From Calditrichaceae bacterium (GTDB lineage: Bacteria; Calditrichota; Calditrichia; Calditrichales; JBFXGD01): a DNA stretch of 64,000 nucleotides. Shown here in pieces: positions 33,942-47,535 of the stretch (the first letter of the stretch is position 1; each line of letters begins with the position of its first letter). The notes beneath the pieces were generated by a model. That model had not been told where the DNA came from, made no database searches, and saw nothing but the letters and a program-made list of their open reading frames with translations. The position numbers and the translations under genes are program-made. The stretch spans positions 32,001-96,000 of the forward strand of contig JBFXLE010000007.1 in the NCBI GenBank assembly GCA_050173015.1, read 5' to 3'.

Positions 33942-34001
33942 TGGGCTGAAGCCCACCTTCATTAGGTTTCTCTTTAACCCCCGATCTAAAGATCGGGGCT
34001 A
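33942..34001. repeat. REP-like doublet abutting the hsdS stop
   Basis: TGGGCTGAAGCCCA and CCCCGATCT-AA-AGATCGGGG followed by CTA (hsdS TAG). Confidence 0.7.
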
Positions 34002-35399
34002 TGACACACCATTAAACGCTTCCCGTAAAACCGCCTGCATCAGTTGCCCTACCTGCGCTTTGCGGGATTTGACCTGTTTTTCCAGCACGTCGATTTTTGC
34101 CATTAGCCGGTCCACTTTTTCGACAATGGCTTGTTGTTCGGCAAGTGGTGGTAAAGCAAATACAGCATTCCTTAAAACAGATTGATTCAAATTATTCATG
34201 GTCTGCCCGATAGAATTGCATAACAATTCTTTCTGAAAATAATCTGAGATAAAACCTTGAATGAAAAAACCTTTATTTATGAAATTTGAAACTTTGATAA
34301 AAAATGAACCTGTTCCACATAGCCATCCTTTTTCATTTTCAGAAACAACGGCACATTTACTTAAATCACCACGTCTTGCTAAAACGACATCATTCATATC
34401 TAAAATATATCGAGACAAGCGGTTTTTAGTGGTCTGACTGACCATCATTTTTTTATTCGCAACTATTTGATTAGCAACAATATTCATTGGATTTACTAAT
34501 GGTATTCCATCCTGCACATAGTCTGACTTATGCAACATCGTTCCAAAAGGTCCGGTTGAAAATTTATTAATTAATCCCGTCAACCGACACCAAACCCACC
34601 CTTCCGGCAGGGTAAACGGTTTTTCTGCTTCGCTGATGGGCGGCAGTTCTTTTATTTTCTTCGTGCCCTTTGTGTCCTTTGCGAGCCTGTCTTTTTCGGC
34701 TTTGATTTTTTCCAGCAACGCTTTAGCGGAATAATTGGGATCGTTCTCACAAAGTTCACGAAGTTCACTAAGATTTTTACCGGTTTCCGCGGCCAGTTTG
34801 TTCCATTGCTGTTCACGCCATGTTGCGGTCAGTTTGCCTTCCACCGCTTCCTGTAAAATGGCCTGGCGAAGTTGTTTGAGATTGTCAGACTGTTGAGAAA
34901 TATGAAAATCAATGTCACCAATTTCATTTTCTGTTCTTTTGAAAAATTCAACGATTGATTTTTGTGTATCAATATCTGGTAAATCAATCTTTAATGGTAA
35001 TAGATGTTTTGGTTTAATTTCTGTTTTTATACCACCTTTAACCTGGTCTTTTAAAAGTTGAATGAACTTAGGACTTTTTAAAAATCGTTTAAAATATTCA
35101 ACATTAATTTTTTTATCATCAAACTGATAGGAAGAATAATGAATAGTTGCAGTAATATCGACATCACCACCGTAGACAGCCAAAGCGCCTTTTGCCACAT
35201 TTATTCCGGAAATCACAAGGTCGCCTTTTTTTGCAATAATCATATCCGTCTTTGATGATTTATCAGAAAAATGCATTCCACCAGAGAAATCGATTTTATC
35301 CAGTCTTTTTAGTTTAGATACGATCGGATCACTGGGTTTGTATTTACCGACTCGTTCTTTTAAGAATTCGCTTACTTCTGTTACTTGCCAATCAGCCAT
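33999..35399 (-). CDS. hsdS: Type I R-M specificity subunit
   Basis: Two TRDs; LRQAILQEAVEGKL, PFTLPEGWVWCRL and LPPLAEQQAIV. Confidence 0.93.
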   Translation of the reverse strand: MADWQVTEVSEFLKERVGKYKPSDPIVSKLKRLDKIDFSGGMHFSDKSSKTDMIIAKKGDLVISGINVAKGALAVYGGDVDITATIHYSSYQFDDKKINVEYFKRFLKSPKFIQLLKDQVKGGIKTEIKPKHLLPLKIDLPDIDTQKSIVEFFKRTENEIGDIDFHISQQSDNLKQLRQAILQEAVEGKLTATWREQQWNKLAAETGKNLSELRELCENDPNYSAKALLEKIKAEKDRLAKDTKGTKKIKELPPISEAEKPFTLPEGWVWCRLTGLINKFSTGPFGTMLHKSDYVQDGIPLVNPMNIVANQIVANKKMMVSQTTKNRLSRYILDMNDVVLARRGDLSKCAVVSENEKGWLCGTGSFFIKVSNFINKGFFIQGFISDYFQKELLCNSIGQTMNNLNQSVLRNAVFALPPLAEQQAIVEKVDRLMAKIDVLEKQVKSRKAQVGQLMQAVLREAFNGVS

Positions 35400-35434: not shown

Positions 35435-36493
35435 TCACTTTTTCTTACCCCCAGAATTATCCTTACCAGGCTTTTTTCGGGGTAATTTCTTTTTCGCCGC
35501 TTCCAGTTTTTTCACCGTTTTATCAAAATCGCCATCTCTTTTATCCTTAGCAACGATACGTTGAATATTGAATTTTTCATACTCATCTTCGGCAAGGGCG
35601 GCGGCCAATTCCTGAGATATTTTTCCGGCATGGGTTAAAATATCGCGCTCATTCAATTGCAGAAAAGAATCCAGTTTTTTTCGCCAGTCGCGCATAAAAA
35701 CCTGTTTATGCCGTTTGGCCTGATCTTCGGCAAAATCCAGATACATGGTTACCACGCGGTTCAGGGCTTGCAGTTCTTCTTCATTCAAATAATTCTTGGC
35801 AATCCTTACATCGCCTTTGCGTACCTTTTCACCTTTCCATGAAGTTAACCCCATATTGGGTTTGGAAGCATCCGCGCGGTCATGTACAATTTCAGCGGCG
35901 GTTTGTCCGGAAATAGCAAAGTGCAGTTTATTTTGCACTGCCTTAAAAAACTCGGGAGTCTCTTCCGCTATGGGATCATAGTCAACCGCTAATTTGTAAA
36001 TTTCCTTTATTTTTTGATAAAAGCGCTGCTCGCTGGATCGAATATCCCTGATCCGTTCCAACAGTTCATCAAAATAATCCGAACCGATATTATGGACATT
36101 CTTCAAGCGTTCATCATCCATGGTAAATCCCTTGACCATGTACTCGTTCAAACGCGCGGTAGCCCAGCGCCGGAATTGTGTACCACGGTGCGAACGGACG
36201 CGGTAACCAATGGCGATGATCGCTTCCAGATTATAAAATTGTGTACTATAATTCTTACCATCAGCGGCAGTTGTCAAGAAATCCTTGACAACTGAATTTT
36301 CATCGAGTTCGCCTTCTTTAAAGATATTATTTATATGAAGGCTGATATTTTGCTTGGTGGTCTGAAACAATTCCGCCATTAACTTCTGTGTCAGCCAAAC
36401 CGTTTCATCCTGCAGACGCACTTCTATTTTAGTTTTACCGGATTCGGTTTGATAGATGATAATCTGCGAATCGGGTTTGTTGGTTTTAGCCAT
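35435..36493 (-). CDS. rhuM: RhuM family protein
   Basis: TVWLTQKLMAELF, YNLEAIIAIGYRVRS, FRRWAT and RIRDIRSSE. Confidence 0.92.
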   Translation of the reverse strand: MAKTNKPDSQIIIYQTESGKTKIEVRLQDETVWLTQKLMAELFQTTKQNISLHINNIFKEGELDENSVVKDFLTTAADGKNYSTQFYNLEAIIAIGYRVRSHRGTQFRRWATARLNEYMVKGFTMDDERLKNVHNIGSDYFDELLERIRDIRSSEQRFYQKIKEIYKLAVDYDPIAEETPEFFKAVQNKLHFAISGQTAAEIVHDRADASKPNMGLTSWKGEKVRKGDVRIAKNYLNEEELQALNRVVTMYLDFAEDQAKRHKQVFMRDWRKKLDSFLQLNERDILTHAGKISQELAAALAEDEYEKFNIQRIVAKDKRDGDFDKTVKKLEAAKKKLPRKKPGKDNSGGKKK

Positions 36494-37934
36494 GGTTCAA
36501 CTCGCTCTTTAACTGACTTAGTAACGCGTCGCTTTTTCTGAATGAATCGTGCAGCATATCCAATAATTCAGCGCTTGTGTGAGTGTGTTCTTCTTCGGCA
36601 ATATGCGGATTTTTAATATCCAGATTAAAACCATTCTTTTCTAATTCTTCAATAGAAACTTTCCAGGCCTGTTCGTTGGCTTCACGCTTTGTCCACCACC
36701 GGCGCAGATTTTCAAATTCAATTTTCTGGATCGTTTTGGTTTTAGAATAAGCCTTCATTCCTTGCGGCAGTTTATGTTCCCAATACCAGATTTCTTTGGT
36801 TGCCTGCCCGCCTGTGGTGGGGCCTTTTTCAAAAAACAACAGATTGGTTGCCACGCTGGCATAGGGTTGGAACACAGAATTAGGTAAACGCACAATGGTA
36901 TGCAGATTACATGTTTCCAGAAAATGCTGACGGATGCGCTGCTTGACGCCATCGCCGGTTAAAGATCCATCCGGCAAAACAATCGCCGCCCGACCGTTTT
37001 CTTTTAAATAGCGAATCATCAAAACCAGAAAAAGGTCGGCGCTTTCCGTGGTGCGGTAATTCTGCGGAAAATTAGTTTCCACACCATCGCTTACCGATGC
37101 CCCGAAAGGCGGATTGGCGAGAATCACATCCACACGGTCTTTATGTCCGATACCGGTGTATTCGCGATTCAGGCTGTCGATATAATCCACATTGGGCACT
37201 TCAATATCATGAAGGATCAGGTTGGTCACACACAGCATAAATGGCAGCGGCTTTAATTCCATACCGTGAATGGTGGCTTCCAGATTTTTTAAATCTTCCA
37301 CGCCTTTTACATCCTGTTTGCGGATATTCTCTATGGCACAGGTTAAAAATCCGCCGGTGCCACAGGCCGGATCCAGCACTTTTTCGCCTAAACGGGGATT
37401 GATCATTTCGGTCATAAATTCGGTTAACGCGCGGGGGGTGTAAAATTCACCGTAATTACCGGCGCTTTGCAAATCGCGTAAAATAGTTTCATAGATATCA
37501 CCAAAAACGTGGCGGTCTTCGGAACTGTTAAAATCGATTTCATTCAGTTTATTGACCACCTGGCGGATGATGGTGCCGTTCTTCATATAATTGTTGGTGC
37601 CGGAAAAGATTTCACGGACAATCAATGTTCGCTTGTTGCCATTGGAAATATCAAGATTTTTCAAGGCCGGAAACAGCGTATTGTCGATAAATTCCTGCAA
37701 CTCGATCCCGGTCATCCCTTCATCATCCGCCGCCCAGTTGCGCCATTGAATAGTTGAAGGGATTGGCGATTTATAATTTTCATTGAGCAGTTCCAGTTCC
37801 TGATCTTTATCATCCAGTATCTTGAGAGAGATCATCCAGCCTAATTGCTCGATACGCTGCGCGTCACCCGAAACGCCCGGATCTTTGCGCATGATGTTTT
37901 GAAGTGTTTTTATGATATTGCCGATATTTTTCAT
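36486..37934 (-). CDS. hsdM: Type I R-M N6-adenine methyltransferase
   Basis: GEFYTPR, DPACGTGGFL and NPPF. Confidence 0.96.
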   Translation of the reverse strand: MKNIGNIIKTLQNIMRKDPGVSGDAQRIEQLGWMISLKILDDKDQELELLNENYKSPIPSTIQWRNWAADDEGMTGIELQEFIDNTLFPALKNLDISNGNKRTLIVREIFSGTNNYMKNGTIIRQVVNKLNEIDFNSSEDRHVFGDIYETILRDLQSAGNYGEFYTPRALTEFMTEMINPRLGEKVLDPACGTGGFLTCAIENIRKQDVKGVEDLKNLEATIHGMELKPLPFMLCVTNLILHDIEVPNVDYIDSLNREYTGIGHKDRVDVILANPPFGASVSDGVETNFPQNYRTTESADLFLVLMIRYLKENGRAAIVLPDGSLTGDGVKQRIRQHFLETCNLHTIVRLPNSVFQPYASVATNLLFFEKGPTTGGQATKEIWYWEHKLPQGMKAYSKTKTIQKIEFENLRRWWTKREANEQAWKVSIEELEKNGFNLDIKNPHIAEEEHTHTSAELLDMLHDSFRKSDALLSQLKSELNHG

Positions 37935-37947
37935 GTGGTTCCCTTTA

Positions 37948-38029
37948 TACTCACTAAGTTCACGAAGGACACAAAGAAAAAATTAACTTTAAAATACTCT
38001 TTGTGATCATTGTGTGCTTCGTGAGAGTC
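37948..38029. repeat. Hairpin repeat 1 of the GxxExxY array (9-nt periodic arms)
   Basis: CACTAAGTT-CACGAAGGA-CACAAAGA ... TCTTTGTG-ATCATTGTG-TGCTTCGTG-AGAGTC. Confidence 0.9.
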
Positions 38030-38409
38030 TACAATTTTCCGTTAATGATTCGTTTTAGCCCGTTTTTTAATAACACTTCGTTAAAATTTATTACCAATCC
38101 GAGTTTTAAACCGGATAATTTCAGATAAGTTAGTGTTTGTTTGAAATGAATGTCTTCCAGTTTTTTTACCGATTTGAGTTCTAATAGAACCTCATTTCCA
38201 ACAATTATATCCGCTCTAAAACCTTTATCAAACTGCAGATTTTCATAGACGACTGGAATGTCTTTCTCTACGTCAACCGATAATCCTGCCTTATTTATCT
38301 CATAAGCTAAAACATCACGGTAAACCGATTCCAGTAAACCAGGACCCAGTTTTGTATGAACTTTTAAAGCGCATTCAATAATAATTTTAGATATTTCATT
38401 TTCATTCAT
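38029..38409 (-). CDS. GxxExxY protein (PD-(D/E)XK nuclease family), copy 1
   Basis: GPGLLESVY and RADIIV..VLLELKS. Confidence 0.93.
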   Translation of the reverse strand: MNENEISKIIIECALKVHTKLGPGLLESVYRDVLAYEINKAGLSVDVEKDIPVVYENLQFDKGFRADIIVGNEVLLELKSVKKLEDIHFKQTLTYLKLSGLKLGLVINFNEVLLKNGLKRIINGKL

Positions 38410-38417
38410 TTATTCTA

Positions 38418-38498
38418 TCTCACGATGTTCACGAAGGACACAAAGAAAAAATTAACTTTAAAATACTCTTTGTGATCATTGTGTGCTTCGTGAGAGTC
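38418..38498. repeat. Hairpin repeat 2
   Basis: TCTCACGA...TCGTGAGA arms. Confidence 0.9.
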
Positions 38499-38878
38499 TA
38501 CAATTTTCCGTTAATGATTCGTTTTAGCCCGTTTTTTAATAACACTTCGTTAAAATTTATTACCAATCCGAGTTTTAAACCGGATAATTTCAGATAAGTT
38601 AGTGTTTGTTTGAAATGAATGTCTTCCAGTTTTTTTACCGATTTGAGTTCTAATAGAACCTCATTTCCAACAATTATATCCGCTCTAAAACCTTTATCAA
38701 ACTGCAGATTTTCATAGACCACAGGAATGTCTTTCTCTACGTCAACCGATAATCCTGCCTTATTTATCTCATAAGCTAAAACATCACGGTAAACCGATTC
38801 CAGTAAACCAGGACCCAGTTTTGTATGAACTTTTAAAGCACATTCAATAATAATTTTAGATATTTCATTTTCATTCAT
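38498..38878 (-). CDS. GxxExxY protein, copy 2
   Basis: Protein identical to copy 1. Confidence 0.93.
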   Translation of the reverse strand: MNENEISKIIIECALKVHTKLGPGLLESVYRDVLAYEINKAGLSVDVEKDIPVVYENLQFDKGFRADIIVGNEVLLELKSVKKLEDIHFKQTLTYLKLSGLKLGLVINFNEVLLKNGLKRIINGKL

Positions 38879-38886
38879 TTTTTCTA

Positions 38887-38967
38887 TCTCACGATGTTCA
38901 CGAAGGACACAAAGAAAAAATTAACTTTAAAATACTCTCTGTGATCATTGTGTGCTTCGTGAGAGTC
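38887..38967. repeat. Hairpin repeat 3
   Basis: Same as repeat 2 with one substitution. Confidence 0.9.
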
Positions 38968-39347
38968 TACAATTTTCCGTTAATGATTCGTTTTAGCCCG
39001 TTTTTTAATAACACTTCGTTAAAATTTATTACCAATCCGAGTTTTAAACCGGATAATTTCAGATAAGTTAGTGTTTGTTTGAAATGAATGTCTTCCAGTT
39101 TTTTTACCGATTTGAGTTCTAATAGAACCTCATTTCCAACAATTATATCCGCTCTAAAACCTTTATCAAACTGCAGATTTTCATAGACCACAGGAATGTC
39201 TTTCTCTACGTCAACCGATAATCCTGCCTTATTTATCTCATAAGCTAAAACATCACGGTAAACCGATTCCAGTAAACCAGGACCCAGTTTTGTATGAACT
39301 TTTAAAGCACATTCAATAATAATTTTAGATATTTCATTTTCATTCAT
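38967..39347 (-). CDS. GxxExxY protein, copy 3
   Basis: Identical protein; the ORF-track extension to 39464 runs through the hairpin. Confidence 0.93.
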   Translation of the reverse strand: MNENEISKIIIECALKVHTKLGPGLLESVYRDVLAYEINKAGLSVDVEKDIPVVYENLQFDKGFRADIIVGNEVLLELKSVKKLEDIHFKQTLTYLKLSGLKLGLVINFNEVLLKNGLKRIINGKL

Positions 39348-39350
39348 TAC

Positions 39351-39431
39351 GACTCTCGCAAAGTTCACAAAGGCCACGAAGAAAAAAGATTTAACTAAAA
39401 AACTTTGTGTTCTTTGTGCGCTTAGTGAGTA
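39351..39431. repeat. Hairpin repeat 4 (divergent)
   Basis: GACTCTCGCAAAGTTCACAAAGGCCACGAAG ... CTTTGTGTTCTTTGTGCGCTTAGTGAGTA. Confidence 0.88.
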
Positions 39432-39432
39432 A

Positions 39433-41838
39433 CTATGCTGCTTCCTTATACAATTCTGTTTCAAGTTCTTTAATCATTTTTAGATAGCCGTTTCTACCGC
39501 CAAAAAGTTTGACGATTTCCGCGGGTGTTCCGATTTCACTAAAAGGATCAATACGTAAAACCGCTAAATCTTCGATGTTTTCAATACCTTCCGTTGCGTA
39601 TTTATCAAGCAGGGCATCAATTATATTCCTTGCCTGTTCGCCATATTTAGTAAAGTAATTGCGTTTCTTCACATTTTCAGCCCGTTCGCGCCTTGTCAGC
39701 GCGGGCATATCCCAGGCCACATGACAAATCAGATCAAATAAATCCAAATCCTTTTTAACTTCTTCTTTTAGATTTTCAAGGATAATGCCTTCGGCTTCCA
39801 GTTCATCAATCAACGCTTTTTTCTTTTCGGCGGAATTCCAGCTCGACAAGAATTCATCCAGGCTGCGATATGTTTTAAGGATGTTCCTTTTCGTATAGTC
39901 TTTCAGGCTTTCTGTAATTAATGTACCATCACCATCCAAAAATTGAACACGTTCATTAAGAACTGAAACATCTACTCCCGCCACATAGATCTTATTTCTT
40001 CGTTCAGATACAATTTCTCCGCCTGTAACAGTATGTGGTTCTCCATAATCAGCATTGTTTTCACCCTCAAAGTCAATTTCTTCTCCGGATTCTTCATCTA
40101 TAAAGTCTTCCTGTCCTTCCGGATTTATATCATCATCAGTGAGCGGTTGATCCGCGTCAACTTCTTTGACCATCACCGGATCGCCGTCAAAAGCAGGATC
40201 AGCAAATAAGTCCGTGACATTGCGGAAATCCATAATGGTAAAGTAGGTTTTATCAAATTCTTCATTGATGCGTGTGCCGCGTCCGATGATCTGCTTGAAT
40301 TCGGTCATTGATTGGATATTGGAATCCAGTACAATCAGTTTGCAGGTTTGCGCGTCCACACCGGTCGACATCAATTTGGAAGTGGTGGCAATAACCGGAT
40401 AAGTCTCTTCGGGATTGATAAAATTATCCAGTTCACGTTTTCCTTCATCCTCATCGCCGGTTATGCGCATGACATATTTATAGTTTTCCTGTACCAAATC
40501 TGTATTGAAGTTAGAGATCGCCTGACGCATGCGTTCCGCATGTTCGATATCAACGCAAAAAATAATTGTCTTGTCGAAGCGGTTCGTTTTTGTTAAAAAC
40601 TCAGTAACTTTATTGGCGACTAATTCAGTACGCGGATCGATCACCAAATTGCGGTCATAATCTTTGGTATTATATAACCGGTCTTCTATCAGATTTCCGT
40701 CTTTATCGGTTTTACCTGATTCCGGCCTCCAACCTTCCAAATCCACATTAATTCCAACACGAATCACTTTATATGGCGCCAGAAATCCATCGGAAATACC
40801 TTGTCTGAGAGAATAGGTATAAATAGGATCGCCAAAATATTCTATATTTGAAACATCTCTTGTTTCTTTTGGCGTTGCGGTTAGACCAATATGAGTTGCT
40901 GTATTAAAATATTCCAGAATTTCCCGCCAGGCGCTATCAGCGGACGCGCTTCCACGATGGCATTCATCTACAACGATCAGGTCAAAAAAGTCACGACTAA
41001 ATTCTCTGTAAGCGTCTTTATCTTCATCATAGCTTGTCAAACCCTGATACAGGGCAAGGTATATTTCAAAAGCCTTGTCAATTTGCTTTTTGCGAATAAC
41101 CGTCATGCGCTCTTTGAAATGTTTGAAATCGCCGCGCTTGGTTTGATTGATTAAAGCGTTACGGTCAGCAAGAAACAGAATGCGTTTGGCAGTTCCACTT
41201 TTCCACAGACGATAAATGATTTGAAAAGCCGCGTAGGTTTTACCCGTCCCGGTTGCCATAACGATTAGAATTCTGTTTTGTCCCCGGGCGATGGCTTCAA
41301 CTGTTCTGTTAACTGCTATTTGTTGGTAATAGCGCGGCTTTCTTCCCGAACCGTCAATGAAATAATCATGGGATGAAATACGCTCTTGTTCGCTTGTTTC
41401 AATGCCTTTGAATTTTTTATAGCGGAGCCAGAGTTCTTCCGGAGCGGGAAAATTTTCCAGAGATAACTCTGTTTCGATTTGCCCGGTAGATTTAGTTCGA
41501 TCGTGTTCCAGAAAGCCATCACCATTGGAACTATATGCAACAGGAATATCCAGAATTTCAGCATAATCCAAACCTTGCTGCATACCAGCGCCAACTGAGT
41601 GCTTATTATCTTTTGCTTCAATTACGGCAATTGGAATATTGGATTTGTAGTAAAAAATGATGTCCGCTTTTTTAGCCTTGCCGCGTTTTGTTTTGTTGCC
41701 TTTAACATAAATTCGCCCGGCTGTAAAATAGACTTCCTCCCGAACTTGCTTTTGAATATCCCAACCTGCTTTTTCCAGGTTTGGAATAATATACTTGGTG
41801 ATTATGTCTCGTTCTGTTAAATCTCTTTTTGACGTCAT
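39433..41838 (-). CDS. hsdR: Type I R-M restriction subunit (EcoAI/EcoEI-like)
   Basis: IEAK, MATGTGKT, DECHRGS, TATP, QIIGRGTR and EcoEI-type C-terminus. Confidence 0.96.
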   Translation of the reverse strand: MTSKRDLTERDIITKYIIPNLEKAGWDIQKQVREEVYFTAGRIYVKGNKTKRGKAKKADIIFYYKSNIPIAVIEAKDNKHSVGAGMQQGLDYAEILDIPVAYSSNGDGFLEHDRTKSTGQIETELSLENFPAPEELWLRYKKFKGIETSEQERISSHDYFIDGSGRKPRYYQQIAVNRTVEAIARGQNRILIVMATGTGKTYAAFQIIYRLWKSGTAKRILFLADRNALINQTKRGDFKHFKERMTVIRKKQIDKAFEIYLALYQGLTSYDEDKDAYREFSRDFFDLIVVDECHRGSASADSAWREILEYFNTATHIGLTATPKETRDVSNIEYFGDPIYTYSLRQGISDGFLAPYKVIRVGINVDLEGWRPESGKTDKDGNLIEDRLYNTKDYDRNLVIDPRTELVANKVTEFLTKTNRFDKTIIFCVDIEHAERMRQAISNFNTDLVQENYKYVMRITGDEDEGKRELDNFINPEETYPVIATTSKLMSTGVDAQTCKLIVLDSNIQSMTEFKQIIGRGTRINEEFDKTYFTIMDFRNVTDLFADPAFDGDPVMVKEVDADQPLTDDDINPEGQEDFIDEESGEEIDFEGENNADYGEPHTVTGGEIVSERRNKIYVAGVDVSVLNERVQFLDGDGTLITESLKDYTKRNILKTYRSLDEFLSSWNSAEKKKALIDELEAEGIILENLKEEVKKDLDLFDLICHVAWDMPALTRRERAENVKKRNYFTKYGEQARNIIDALLDKYATEGIENIEDLAVLRIDPFSEIGTPAEIVKLFGGRNGYLKMIKELETELYKEAA

Positions 41839-42071: not shown

Positions 42072-42974
42072 TTACTTGAATAAATCAACAACTTCTTTTG
42101 CAGATAACAATTTTTCATAAGAGGTGTATCTCGGGCTCTGCAAAATTCCCTGCTTTGCTCTGCCATATTTTATAGGCCCAATTGGTTTTGCTGGTGCAAT
42201 AAAATTCAATTTATATTTTCCACCATCCCCATAAGGTTCAATAGACTCAACTTCAGCGTAATGCGTCACTGCTGAAATAGGAGCAGTTTGATATGCGGCT
42301 ATGTATTTAATTTCATTTAGTTTTCCACCACCAATTCTAATTGCCCACCAGCAGTTTTCACCAATGAAAACATCTTTAAACCCATCTTCCTGTGCAGGAA
42401 CGATAATAGTATCTTGCAACCCCTTTTTCTTTATTATATTCTGTGGATGAGACGCAACTTCAATTTTCTTGCCCTTTTCAAACACTCTAATTTCAACCAA
42501 AGGCAGAATGCTCAAAATCTCATTAAGAAATTCCTGTGTATCAGCTCGCTCTGCTTCTGTTAATACAGGTTCATTCGGGGTTGCATTATTATCTAATTTT
42601 GATCTGCCAATACTTTTTGCTCTATCAATCAAAGCCCACTCAAGCCAAGTAATGTGTGCCCGATTAAGCCCCCCATTACTTGAGACAAAGATCAAAACTT
42701 TATCCCAGAACTCTTTATTCTTCTCGTGAGAATCAATTCGGTTTCTTACACCGTCCCCCTGACCAATGTAAAGGGTTGGGAGATCATCACCTTCCTGATA
42801 TCCAAAGAGAATATAGGCACCGGCTTGGTCAAGTTCCTTTCTGTTTCTATACTTATCCCAGTTATCTCTTGAAATTTCCAATCCAATACCAGTCCAATTC
42901 ATTTTATCAATAATTTTAAATGTATTTGGGTCCCCATCGGGAACAAATAAACGAATAGTGTAAGGTTTCGACAT
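42072..42974 (-). CDS. GIY-YIG nuclease family protein (cassette gene)
   Basis: GAYILFG...LYIGQG..RNRIDSH, KEFW and LE motifs; extra C-terminal domain. Confidence 0.85.
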   Translation of the reverse strand: MSKPYTIRLFVPDGDPNTFKIIDKMNWTGIGLEISRDNWDKYRNRKELDQAGAYILFGYQEGDDLPTLYIGQGDGVRNRIDSHEKNKEFWDKVLIFVSSNGGLNRAHITWLEWALIDRAKSIGRSKLDNNATPNEPVLTEAERADTQEFLNEILSILPLVEIRVFEKGKKIEVASHPQNIIKKKGLQDTIIVPAQEDGFKDVFIGENCWWAIRIGGGKLNEIKYIAAYQTAPISAVTHYAEVESIEPYGDGGKYKLNFIAPAKPIGPIKYGRAKQGILQSPRYTSYEKLLSAKEVVDLFK

Positions 42975-43054: not shown

Positions 43055-43365
43055 AATTAACAATCGTAAACAGTTCACTCCTTCGTTCAACAGAATAAGT
43101 GCCTTTTAAGACACACCGCTGACCATTATGACTTTTTATTGGAATTCCGGCGCAAGATTATATCCATATAATGAGCTGACCTCTATCTGAACCACATTAT
43201 CAACCGTTTGTGTCTGCAATGATTGAAGTAAAAAAATAAAATCGTAATTATTATAAACAAAAGGAATGAAATTTTCAAGGGTGGTTTAACCTACACGTAA
43301 ACGATATACTCCTTTCCCATAGCAATTTTTGTAAACTCCGGGTTTTAATACATTCACTTATTCCC

Positions 43366-43483
43366 AATCCCGAAGGGATTACACGTTAATAGAAAAACAG
43401 ACCCCACATCATCTGCGACCCCGTGGGGGTCGAACTATTACGGCGGAAATCCTATTCTACTAAGCTGTGACACCTCCGGCGTC
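43366..43483. repeat. REP-like hairpin triplet
   Basis: AATCCCGAAGGGATT, CGACCCCGTGGGGGTCG and degenerate GACACCTCCGGCGTC. Confidence 0.65.
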
Positions 43484-43615
43484 GGAGTTTCCGGTTTTAA
43501 CCATTGATAATCGTCATACCCTTTTTCTCTTAAAACAGGGTCAATCAAGTAATAATGGGTTTCTGCTTCATTATAGGCCATTCAATAACTCCAACGTTAA
43601 AAAGAAAAGTATCTT

Positions 43616-46864: not shown

Positions 46865-47395
46865 TTATTTTAACAACTCGGCGATCAGCATTACCGCGAC
46901 ACTGCAGATCAGACCGACAATAAAAGACATATAAGCAAGGCGGATAAAGCGGTATTTTTTATCCGCCAAAAATTTTCCGAGCGTATAAATTTCTCTGATT
47001 TGCAGTTCATAACTTTTGGAAGGATCATTCATTGCTTCTTCCATGGCATTTTCAAATTGTCTGTAGTCAAGCCGAACAAAGTTGCCAAAAAACAGCAGAT
47101 TAAATTCGGGGTCATTAACATCCGGAGGTTTTCCCTGTTTAATGGGCACTCGTACCTTGGGCATAACCGTATAAACCGCGAGAACCAGCGTCACGAGACA
47201 AAAGGCGATCAAGACCATCGCCGCCCACTTTAAATCGGGATCCGTTACATACCTGGCCGAAAGTGTGATCACCACCGACGCCATAGTCATAAGAATATTC
47301 GCCTTGAGATCGGCCATTGAACTGAGCTGCACATGATGGTTTCTTGTCTGTCGAACTAACTGATCAAGGTGAGCGCCCGCATGATGAATCTTCAT
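46865..47395 (-). CDS. Pycsar effector-like (DUF5706) membrane protein, stand-alone
   Basis: HVQLSSMADLKANIL, NLLFFGNF and LADKKYRFIRLAY; 3 TM helices. Confidence 0.8.
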   Translation of the reverse strand: MKIHHAGAHLDQLVRQTRNHHVQLSSMADLKANILMTMASVVITLSARYVTDPDLKWAAMVLIAFCLVTLVLAVYTVMPKVRVPIKQGKPPDVNDPEFNLLFFGNFVRLDYRQFENAMEEAMNDPSKSYELQIREIYTLGKFLADKKYRFIRLAYMSFIVGLICSVAVMLIAELLK

Positions 47396-47535
47396 AAATC
47401 CCCCCATAAAAATAGTTTCCAAGGTCATTGTGTTTTGCGTAATTTAACAAAATCTTTTAAAAATTGTAACTACGTTGAATTTTTCATCTCTAACTAATTC
47501 AAGATTATTTTTCTATAACATAAGGAGTCAGAACA

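Follow-up and report, generated by a model that had tools for sequence, protein, structure and literature searches.

A hairpin-armed GxxExxY nuclease-gene cassette, probably amplified by local recombination, at the hsdR-hsdM junction of an EcoAI-type restriction operon

An array of three small nuclease genes of the GxxExxY family, separated by hairpins, lies between hsdR and hsdM of an EcoAI-type restriction-modification (R-M) operon in a Calditrichaceae bacterium (GCA_050173015.1, contig JBFXLE010000007.1, positions 32,001-96,000); all coordinates refer to this stretch of 64,000 nt, hereafter the window. The operon and the array are encoded on the minus strand throughout, in the order hsdR, three GxxExxY genes, hsdM, a RhuM-family gene and hsdS. 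The hsdR gene (39433-41838) encodes an EcoAI/type IB restriction subunit of 801 aa (NCBIfam restrict_EcoAI, 1169.7 bits; Pfam ResIII and EcoEI_R_C), and hsdM (36486-37934) a protein of 482 aa with the Pfam domains N6_Mtase and HsdM_N. The whole insert measures 1498 nt from hsdR stop to hsdM ATG (37935-39432), as delimited by junction maps and by an outer inverted repeat matching at 25 of 29 positions. Its arms begin 1 nt past the hsdR stop codon (39433-39435) and end 13 nt short of the hsdM ATG (37934), and the 13-nt spacer upstream of hsdM includes a purine-rich run resembling a ribosome-binding site. The reading frames of the operon are unbroken, in agreement with an initial annotation of this DNA, which had the array starting 1 nt after the hsdR stop and leaving the operon intact.

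The same annotation described three 469-bp units and four hairpins of about 80 nt. Tandem Repeats Finder recovers the units (period 469, 3.0 copies, 99% matches, 37950-39348). Each unit is composed of a 126-aa GxxExxY gene and a hairpin of about 80 nt, and the three protein products are identical. The gene nearest hsdR (38967-39347), which the list of open reading frames (ORFs) extends to an upstream TTG to give 165 aa, is identical to the middle one (38498-38878). Copy 1, the gene nearest hsdM (38029-38409), is distinguished from copies 2 and 3 by changes at 38251, 38254 and 38371, all of them synonymous, exactly as had been reported; further differences were found in the hairpin parts, at 37955 and 37957 and between the equivalent positions 38412 and 38881, and 38470 and 38939. 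The similarity of the third unit stops at its right edge, at positions 39349-39355, and the left boundary equals the internal junction from 37958 inwards. Within each gene copy (39142-39169, 38673-38700 and 38204-38231, minus strand), two hexamers also resemble a promoter at 11 of 12 positions; relatives do not conserve these hexamers, which were taken as fortuitous.

The four hairpins part the genes from one another and from hsdR and hsdM, and their arms are built of three 9-nt units of the CACNAAG type or of its complement. The internal hairpin at 38887-38964 has three such units per arm around a 22-nt A/T loop, and the other internal hairpin (38418-38495) is 71% self-complementary over 38 nt. 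The hsdR-side hairpin (39351-39431) is diverged from the internal ones, and the hsdM-side hairpin (37948-38029) is a chimera, as set out below. Compared with shuffled sequences, the hairpins fold on the plus strand with z scores of -1.7 to -4.3 as DNA and -3.8 to -5.1 as RNA. No Rfam family matched them, the lone match being a chance hit to a lncRNA (E 0.061).

The 126-aa protein matches, over its full length, both PDDEXK_3 (PF13366; E 8.8e-39, 132.9 bits against a cut-off of 22) and the NCBIfam GxxExxY model TIGR04256 (E 2.2e-40, 137.7 bits against a cut-off of 35). Across 61 sequences, G24, E27, Y30, D67, K79 and Q91 do not vary, and E77 and Y95 scarcely do; the pair Q91...Y95 fits the QxxxY motif of RecB/Cas4-type enzymes. 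The AlphaFold model (pLDDT 95.3, pTM 0.88) has the alpha-beta-beta-beta-alpha-beta core of PD-(D/E)XK nucleases. In fold it comes nearest, though weakly, to the LHK-Exo alkaline exonuclease, Cas4 SSO0001, ACE1 and lambda exonuclease, which act on DNA ends and single strands, and a sequence search of the PDB returned no match at E ≤1. Codon differences from the related gene at locus L120 comprise 51 synonymous and 19 non-synonymous changes. The gene is thus predicted to encode a complete, minimal PD-(D/E)XK nuclease akin to Cas4, RecB and lambda exonuclease, and the excess of synonymous changes together with the conserved residues suggests that it has been maintained as a working enzyme.

The two ends of the insert are related to one another. 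Over 29 nt, 86% of the positions (25/29) are complementary between the outer arms (37948-37976 and 39403-39431), and the first 11 nt pair without a mismatch. The initial annotation held that the tips of the terminal hairpins pair better across the array than with their own partners. This stands for the outer pair, at 86% against the 70% (37 nt), 71% (38 nt) and 74% (27 nt) of pairings between own partners, and fails for the inner pair, formed by 39351-39382 with the arms next to the gene stops, which reaches 72-75% and is no better than own partners. At other loci such crossed pairing is not a general rule: outer arms beat both of their own partners in one of seven cases and inner arms likewise in one of seven. 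The power of this test is low, as hairpins on both sides could be scored for no more than 7 of 103 related genes.

A different regularity emerges when whole inserts are compared. In all ten other gene-bearing inserts compared at the hsdR-hsdM junction, an arm starting 3-6 nt past the stop codon pairs with an arm ending 6-18 nt before the ATG. The matches between end arms amount to 25/29 in the window, 28/30 in L118, 30/30 in L123, 22/27 in L120, 21/24 in L044, 19/24 in L086, 27/33 in L092, 24/30 in L046, 19/21 in L057 and 16/17 in L105; the arms of L128 were paired by eye, the script having chosen another repeat there. Moreover, in the window, L118, L120 and L105, the variable letter of the outermost unit at one end complements that at the other, yet it differs among these loci. 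Since all compared inserts have paired end arms, the complementary outer arms, which the initial annotation called A and A', constitute the terminal inverted repeat of the entire insert, regardless of its content, with one repeat in the hsdR-side hairpin and the other in the hsdM-side hairpin. The window accordingly presents a gene enclosed by inverted arms of tandem 8-10-nt units.

The state of the junction before insertion was assessed on 80 loci with close HsdM relatives (75-93% identity, from many phyla), which were mapped for HsdR, HsdM, RhuM, HsdS and the small gene; spacing could be measured in 70, the remaining 10 having been dropped because one gene end was missing. The junction is empty, with a spacing of at most 12 nt, in 49 of these 70 operons: hsdR and hsdM overlap by 1 nt in one, the stop codon abuts the ATG (0 nt) in 22, and 3-12 nt separate the genes in 26. 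Eight others, with 60-162 nt, contain remnants, hairpins or other palindromes, and 13 exceed 200 nt, seven of them with a GxxExxY gene or fragment and several others with other cargo. In the closest operons (L038, L039 and L041, whose HsdM is 87-93% identical), the hsdR stop directly abuts the hsdM ATG. The empty site therefore holds no hairpin, and the resident A-A' hairpin into which the cassettes had been proposed to insert is not supported; the outer arms therefore arrived with the insert. What survives of that proposal, which likened the array to integron cassettes, is the self-contained nuclease-gene cassette with hairpin ends, and what is not supported is the resident hairpin, crossed pairing as a rule and the serial insertion.

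The comparison indicates a presence/absence polymorphism at an otherwise conserved site, with 49 empty junctions, seven with the gene or a fragment of it and two with smaller remnants (L049 and L113). The latter belong, with L063, to a series of decaying cassettes within a clade of mostly Brocadiaceae operons: both arms are kept around an internally deleted gene in L049:5860-6000 (140 nt), a 60-nt remnant is left in L113:2547-2607, and in L063:4441-5070 the gene is broken by foreign DNA. Gene-less hairpins, by this series, can derive from gene-bearing cassettes through deletion. A gene-less hairpin built of another unit type was found in L060. Other cargo at the same junction includes genes for an IS200-like Y1 transposase (L047:5186-5617), GmrSD (L068:4013-5986), an NYN-domain protein (L080:5236-5886) and a DUF559 nuclease-fold protein with its own G-rich inverted arms (L094:5537-6000), besides an ORF with no Pfam match in L055; the junction of L104, at 4429 nt, is also among the 13 long ones. 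Judging from these contents, small genes of a selfish or defensive kind use the hsdR-hsdM junction as a landing site.

The cassette is part of a wider family. An inverted repeat scoring at least 12 between the 125-nt flanks was found for 57 of 103 related genes and for none of 103 shuffles, and across loci the arm units share a CAC...G core and a phase of 8-10 nt. Of 41 related genomes, 39 have PF13366 matches; most of these have more than one, and stop codons break up some of the matches. Hairpins of the array type that lack a gene can be stacked beside the gene, as in L124:2700-3000, with three upstream, and in L120:268-457 and 838-1026, with two on each side. When 109 GxxExxY proteins are placed in a tree, 12 junction genes fall together with L121 and L124 in a single group with moderate support (SH-aLRT 86); the junction label requires two changes on this tree, a value as low as which was reached by none of 500 shuffles. 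In the HsdM tree, cassette-bearing operons are scattered, the window grouping with the empty L038 and L039 (support 98), L105 with the empty L067 (99) and L123 with the empty L062 (92). The flanks of the insert agree with this placement, with nucleotide identities of 82-87% at the hsdR end and 85-92% at the hsdM start to the empty L038/L039, against 80-81% to the cassette-bearing L120, and no signal of flank co-conversion was detected over the 240 nt that end hsdR or the 400 nt that begin hsdM. L121 and L124, whose proteins are 82% and 80% identical to that of the window, lie with their hairpins between unrelated genes and outside any R-M operon, which shows that the cassette can leave the operon. 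One junction clade, scattered operons and members outside them together point to site-specific gain or loss: the cassette has either been gained repeatedly at the junction or lost precisely, restoring the abutting stop and ATG, and either would be site-specific behaviour.

This distribution also bears on the idea that the gene is a domesticated accessory of the restriction system, an extra nuclease or a regulator selected at the junction, whose additional copies raise dosage. Such a role would sit well with one gene clade that has kept to this junction across operons from several phyla and evolves under purifying selection, and with the other small nuclease or defence genes found there (DUF559 in L094, GmrSD in L068, NYN in L080). 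It is hard to reconcile with the absence of the gene from 49 of 70 operons, the closest ones included, with the decayed copies in L049, L113 and L063, with the lack of an hsd operon alongside the gene in 76 of 80 metagenome relatives, or with the multiple and partly stop-interrupted matches in related genomes, and is regarded as distinctly unlikely.

Within the genome of the window, no other PF13366 gene was found, and BLAST returned no further hairpin copy outside the array. The array is therefore not a collapse of dispersed paralogues, which the initial annotation had named as a possible source of error. Most likely a horizontally acquired operon either brought the cassette with it or received it later, and the cassette has not spread further in this genome. 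The sole other site in the genome with the arm motif is hsdS itself (33999-35399, minus strand, with the expected domains present). A motif scan, combined with protein and DNA alignments, located two in-frame arms of the CACNAAG type in its central conserved region (34656-34772, minus strand). The arm at 34746-34772 lies within a 17-residue insertion which is missing in the eight aligned orthologues covering the region; the arm at 34656-34685 replaces conserved codons and adds one residue, and a conserved native stretch of 45 nt separates the two.

The number of copies rests on the assembly; other runs were represented by Logan DNA contigs, whose depth is no copy count. In run X1, contig depth was 95.9 for the unit and 42.7 and 40 for the flanks, a ratio of about 2.3, which supports more than one copy. 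In run X9, the flanks were at 7.8 and 8.5, the unit at 17.2 and the internal-hairpin contig at 9.1, values which fit two copies. An assembly artefact, with one or two real copies and a third made by the assembler, could draw on the identity of copies 2 and 3, on a unit depth in X1 of 2.3x rather than about 2.85x and on the internal junction at 38412, which the listed X1 contigs leave uncovered. However, the assembly tells the two internal hairpins apart (38412 vs 38881, 38470 vs 38939), an X1 contig with a depth of 1.1x spans the junction of the 38881 type, the depth of the unit plainly exceeds 2x, and with the collapse of dispersed paralogues excluded by the absence of any other genome copy, an artefact is considered very improbable.

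The hairpins of other runs and relatives retain traces of exchange at the locus. In X9 and X3, the hsdM-side hairpin differs from that of the window at 20-22 positions, all inward of 37968, and the outer tip of about 20 nt (37948-37967) is common to the window, X9 and X3. At 18 listed hsdM-side positions, the hsdM-side hairpin of L120 has the letter of X9 at 14, and another hairpin of L120, Hx, has the letter of the window at 15; the divergence between X9 and the window starts directly after a 10-nt stretch common to both hairpin types. In the lineage of the window, the internal type has thus overwritten the original hsdM-side hairpin up to this shared stretch. Hairpin type and, apparently, copy number differ from sample to sample at the window locus. 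The identity of copies 2 and 3 and the chimeric hsdM-side hairpin point to local recombination, and three separate insertions, as first proposed, are not needed. In the relatives L120, L122 and L128, one gene is flanked by one or two complete hairpins on each side, and a gene between direct hairpin repeats is an arrangement prone to unequal exchange. A second tandem duplicate involves a different GxxExxY cassette (L204, G038:C223, 334-1315; period 491, 2.0 copies, 98%), in which the arms enclose the gene and the inter-copy spacer of about 45 nt is more diverged than the genes.

On this evidence, the array is probably the product of one hairpin-armed GxxExxY cassette, inserted with its own terminal arms, of which the 469-bp module was locally amplified by unequal recombination or gene conversion. 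The cassette would ride on a horizontally mobile family of EcoAI-type operons, at the stop/start junction, and unequal recombination or gene conversion between hairpins acting as direct repeats would have amplified the module of gene and hairpin to three. The same exchange would have homogenised the copies, including most of the hsdM-side hairpin. The phased 9-nt units may be the binding or cleavage sites of the nuclease on folded or single-stranded DNA, and breaks at these units may be repaired by copying, which would give site-specific gain, the shuffling of hairpin modules between relatives and a raised rate of local amplification.

Several observations weigh against this account. The depth ratio of 2.3 in X1 falls between two and three copies, no listed contig of that run spans the internal junction at 38412, and the X9 contig has a T at this position where the window has an A. 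The 17 nt between an internal gene start and the shared core of the arm match neither outer flank exactly, so a single simple duplication of the present flanks is insufficient and further conversion or another source would be needed. The inferred crossover shares only about 10 nt, which is short for RecA-type recombination. The order of hairpins also differs, L120 having two hairpins, the gene and two hairpins, and the window a hairpin followed by alternating genes and hairpins. By eye, the loop of the hsdR-side hairpin agrees almost completely with that of the L120 hairpin just upstream of the gene, and the loop at 38418-38495 with that of Hx; no one event from which the order in the window follows from that in L120 could be derived, and the modules have evidently been reshuffled. 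As for the nuclease, its action on the arms is a role that we infer, the fold matches are weak (best E 3.9e-3, TM ≤0.5), and the cassette has not spread elsewhere in its own genome, which makes its activity here conjectural.

Some of these points would be expected if a circular module of gene and hairpin recombined hairpin by hairpin, in an attC x attC-like manner and in the absence of an integrase, possibly through the nuclease, each copy being a reinsertion and the crossed arms being products of the recombination. Reinsertion of such a circle at a hairpin would leave the same product as amplification in place. The pairing of the outer arms (86%, against 70-74% for own partners) is in its favour, and the same relation holds before homogenisation, as reconstructed from the list of X9 variants; in L017 the gene-adjacent arms score 23 against 15.5 and 16.5 for own partners. 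Close relatives have their hairpin modules in different orders, the two flanks do not simply combine to give the internal junction, and no other mobility gene was found among the scanned ORFs nearby. Nevertheless, the empty site offers no hairpin partner, the inner crossed pair (72-75%) does not outdo own partners (71-74%), and crossing is seen in only two of seven testable loci. Reinsertion also predicts that the gene-side arm of the hsdR-side hairpin should equal an internal arm, whereas this hairpin differs throughout, in arm and loop; furthermore, PD-(D/E)XK nucleases are, to our knowledge, not known as catalysts of strand exchange. Reinsertion is for these reasons held to be an unlikely origin of the copies. 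The broader possibility that the hairpins are true recombination sites and the GxxExxY nuclease the sole protein needed, amounting to a cassette system free of integrase, is likewise given a small chance. In such a system, modules would be cut at the phased 9-nt units in folded DNA and exchanged, reinserted or amplified at hairpins and stop/start junctions; if true, it would explain the crossed outer arms, the order of hairpins in relatives, the in-frame arms in hsdS and the repeated gain at the junction across phyla.

The arms might instead operate in RNA, as in the ORF-bearing intervening sequences (IVSs) of 23S rRNA, with RNase III cutting the stems in the hsdR-hsdM transcript, so that a message for the small gene is released or the operon messages are uncoupled, and the triplication being neutral or driven by dosage; this too is held to be unlikely. 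The whole insert and most single cassettes do lie inside inverted arms, a layout resembling that given for the Coxiella IVS in PMC4990558. The insert sits within a transcription unit, a terminator scan revealed no terminator-like site, and the ends of the arms provide a purine-rich run right before the next start codon. Over 203 flanks of related genes, the sense strand folds better in 121 and the antisense strand in 82, with a mean difference of 1.2 kcal/mol; the loci are related and the flanks hold other signals, and no conclusion on DNA versus RNA was drawn from this count. In the window itself the relation is reversed, RNA folds of the mRNA strand being weaker (z -1.8 to -3.5) than those of the antisense, plus strand (-3.8 to -5.1). 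A pure RNA stem would not require the conserved CAC...G core or the 8-10-nt phase, and a role in RNA leaves the gain and loss at a single junction and the copies at unrelated loci unexplained. Amplification of an inserted cassette by local recombination is retained as the preferred account.

The RhuM-family gene (35435-36493, minus strand) lies between hsdM, which it overlaps by 8 nt, and hsdS, and a RhuM-family gene occupies the same operon position in many orthologues, e.g. L039, L042, L048 and L053. No integrase or transposase family was matched by Pfam among the 16 ORFs scanned between 22.5 and 54 kb of the window, in line with the initial annotation, which had seen none nearby, and a search for tRNA genes around the array found none. 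Just upstream of hsdR, an ORF of 300 aa (42072-42974, minus strand) has no Pfam or NCBIfam match. An ORF of 187 aa (46865-47428, minus strand) matches the Pycsar effector domain PycTM (E 1.8e-22), and the scanned neighbouring ORFs are not cyclases. At 43360-43485 lies an unrelated repeat, some 125 nt long, for which stem-loops are predicted; it has 49 BLAST matches in the same genome and over 20 in G001, a genome of the same genus. A synteny comparison of G001 with the window returned only short repeat matches, which leaves the borders of the island undefined, and G001 has no match to HsdM residues 1-200 at E ≤1e-30.

Many bacterial phyla commonly encode GxxExxY/PDDEXK_3 proteins, to which no function is assigned. 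The locus provides clean comparative material on these proteins, as one operon family includes empty, filled, decayed and amplified junctions and relatives of the cassette are present at unrelated sites. It frames a testable question, namely whether a minimal Cas4/RecB-like nuclease acts on hairpins of phased 9-nt repeats and drives its own spread; such an enzyme, if confirmed, could serve as a structure- or sequence-specific nuclease tool. For genome annotation, the locus illustrates that inserts of this kind, and in-frame relics of their arms, can reside in restriction operons without breaking them.

Among known systems, integrons are arrays in which promoterless small genes are parted by imperfect attC hairpins whose halves belong to neighbouring units. 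The array in the window shares this layout; it differs in that no IntI was found in the scanned region of about 30 kb (16 ORFs) and no attI is present, in that one gene occurs three times, in hairpins that are arrays of 9-nt units and in an empty site devoid of a recombination hairpin. Free-standing homing endonuclease genes sit between conserved genes, as in T4-like phages, and in the same way a nuclease gene is here present or absent at one exact intergenic point, with a phylogeny unlike that of its neighbours. Unlike homing endonuclease genes, the cassette shows no flank co-conversion, its flanks are nearest to the empty L038/L039 and its repeat arms have no counterpart there. Ordinary tandem amplification between direct repeats gives near-identical head-to-tail units, which are found here together with apparent differences in copy number between strains and homogenised junctions; what sets the array apart is that the direct repeats are the structured ends of a mobile-looking cassette and that the stretch in common at the inferred crossover is only some 10 nt long.

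Three further systems associate a small gene with palindromic repeats. In REP/REPIN-RAYT, as presented by Bertels and Rainey (2011, PMC3116915), a single-copy enzyme gene is flanked by palindromic hairpin repeats thought to be its substrate. The cassette resembles it in the enzyme gene placed between hairpin repeats, in the gene-less hairpin copies and in the extragenic site. In contrast, its enzyme is a PD-(D/E)XK nuclease (PDDEXK_3 only) rather than an HUH Y1 transposase, its arms are tandem arrays of 8-10-nt units instead of a single REP, and this genome is without dispersed gene-less copies, the arm motif recurring beyond the array only in hsdS. The Ssn GIY-YIG nucleases, in the account of Chenal et al. 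(2025, PMC11893778), have genes flanked on one or both sides by recognised NTS/SRM hairpin repeats across phyla, with hundreds of repeats per genome and demonstrated cleavage of single-stranded DNA. A small nuclease gene beside hairpin repeats, and an association kept across phyla, are common to both; the GxxExxY protein, a predicted nuclease, belongs to another superfamily and is associated with other repeats, here confined to one locus. The 23S rRNA IVS of Coxiella burnetii, described in PMC4990558 as inverted ends around a small ORF, is matched in that a selfish insert of about 0.4 kb with inverted ends and a small ORF lies in a transcription unit and host function is kept. The differences concern the site, an operon junction and not an rRNA helix, the cargo, of nuclease fold instead of S23p, and the better folding of the antisense strand in the window. 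Membership in REP-RAYT, Ssn or the 23S IVS fails because the defining enzyme or site differs, and membership in integrons because of integrase, attI and cassette diversity. Among the articles and abstracts covered by a literature search, none was found to link GxxExxY, PF13366 or TIGR04256 to repeats. The hairpin-armed GxxExxY cassette is apparently an undescribed kind of selfish nuclease cassette and, should the nuclease prove to act on its arms and drive its own spread, would add to RAYT and Ssn a further class of enzyme responsible for palindromic repeats in bacteria.

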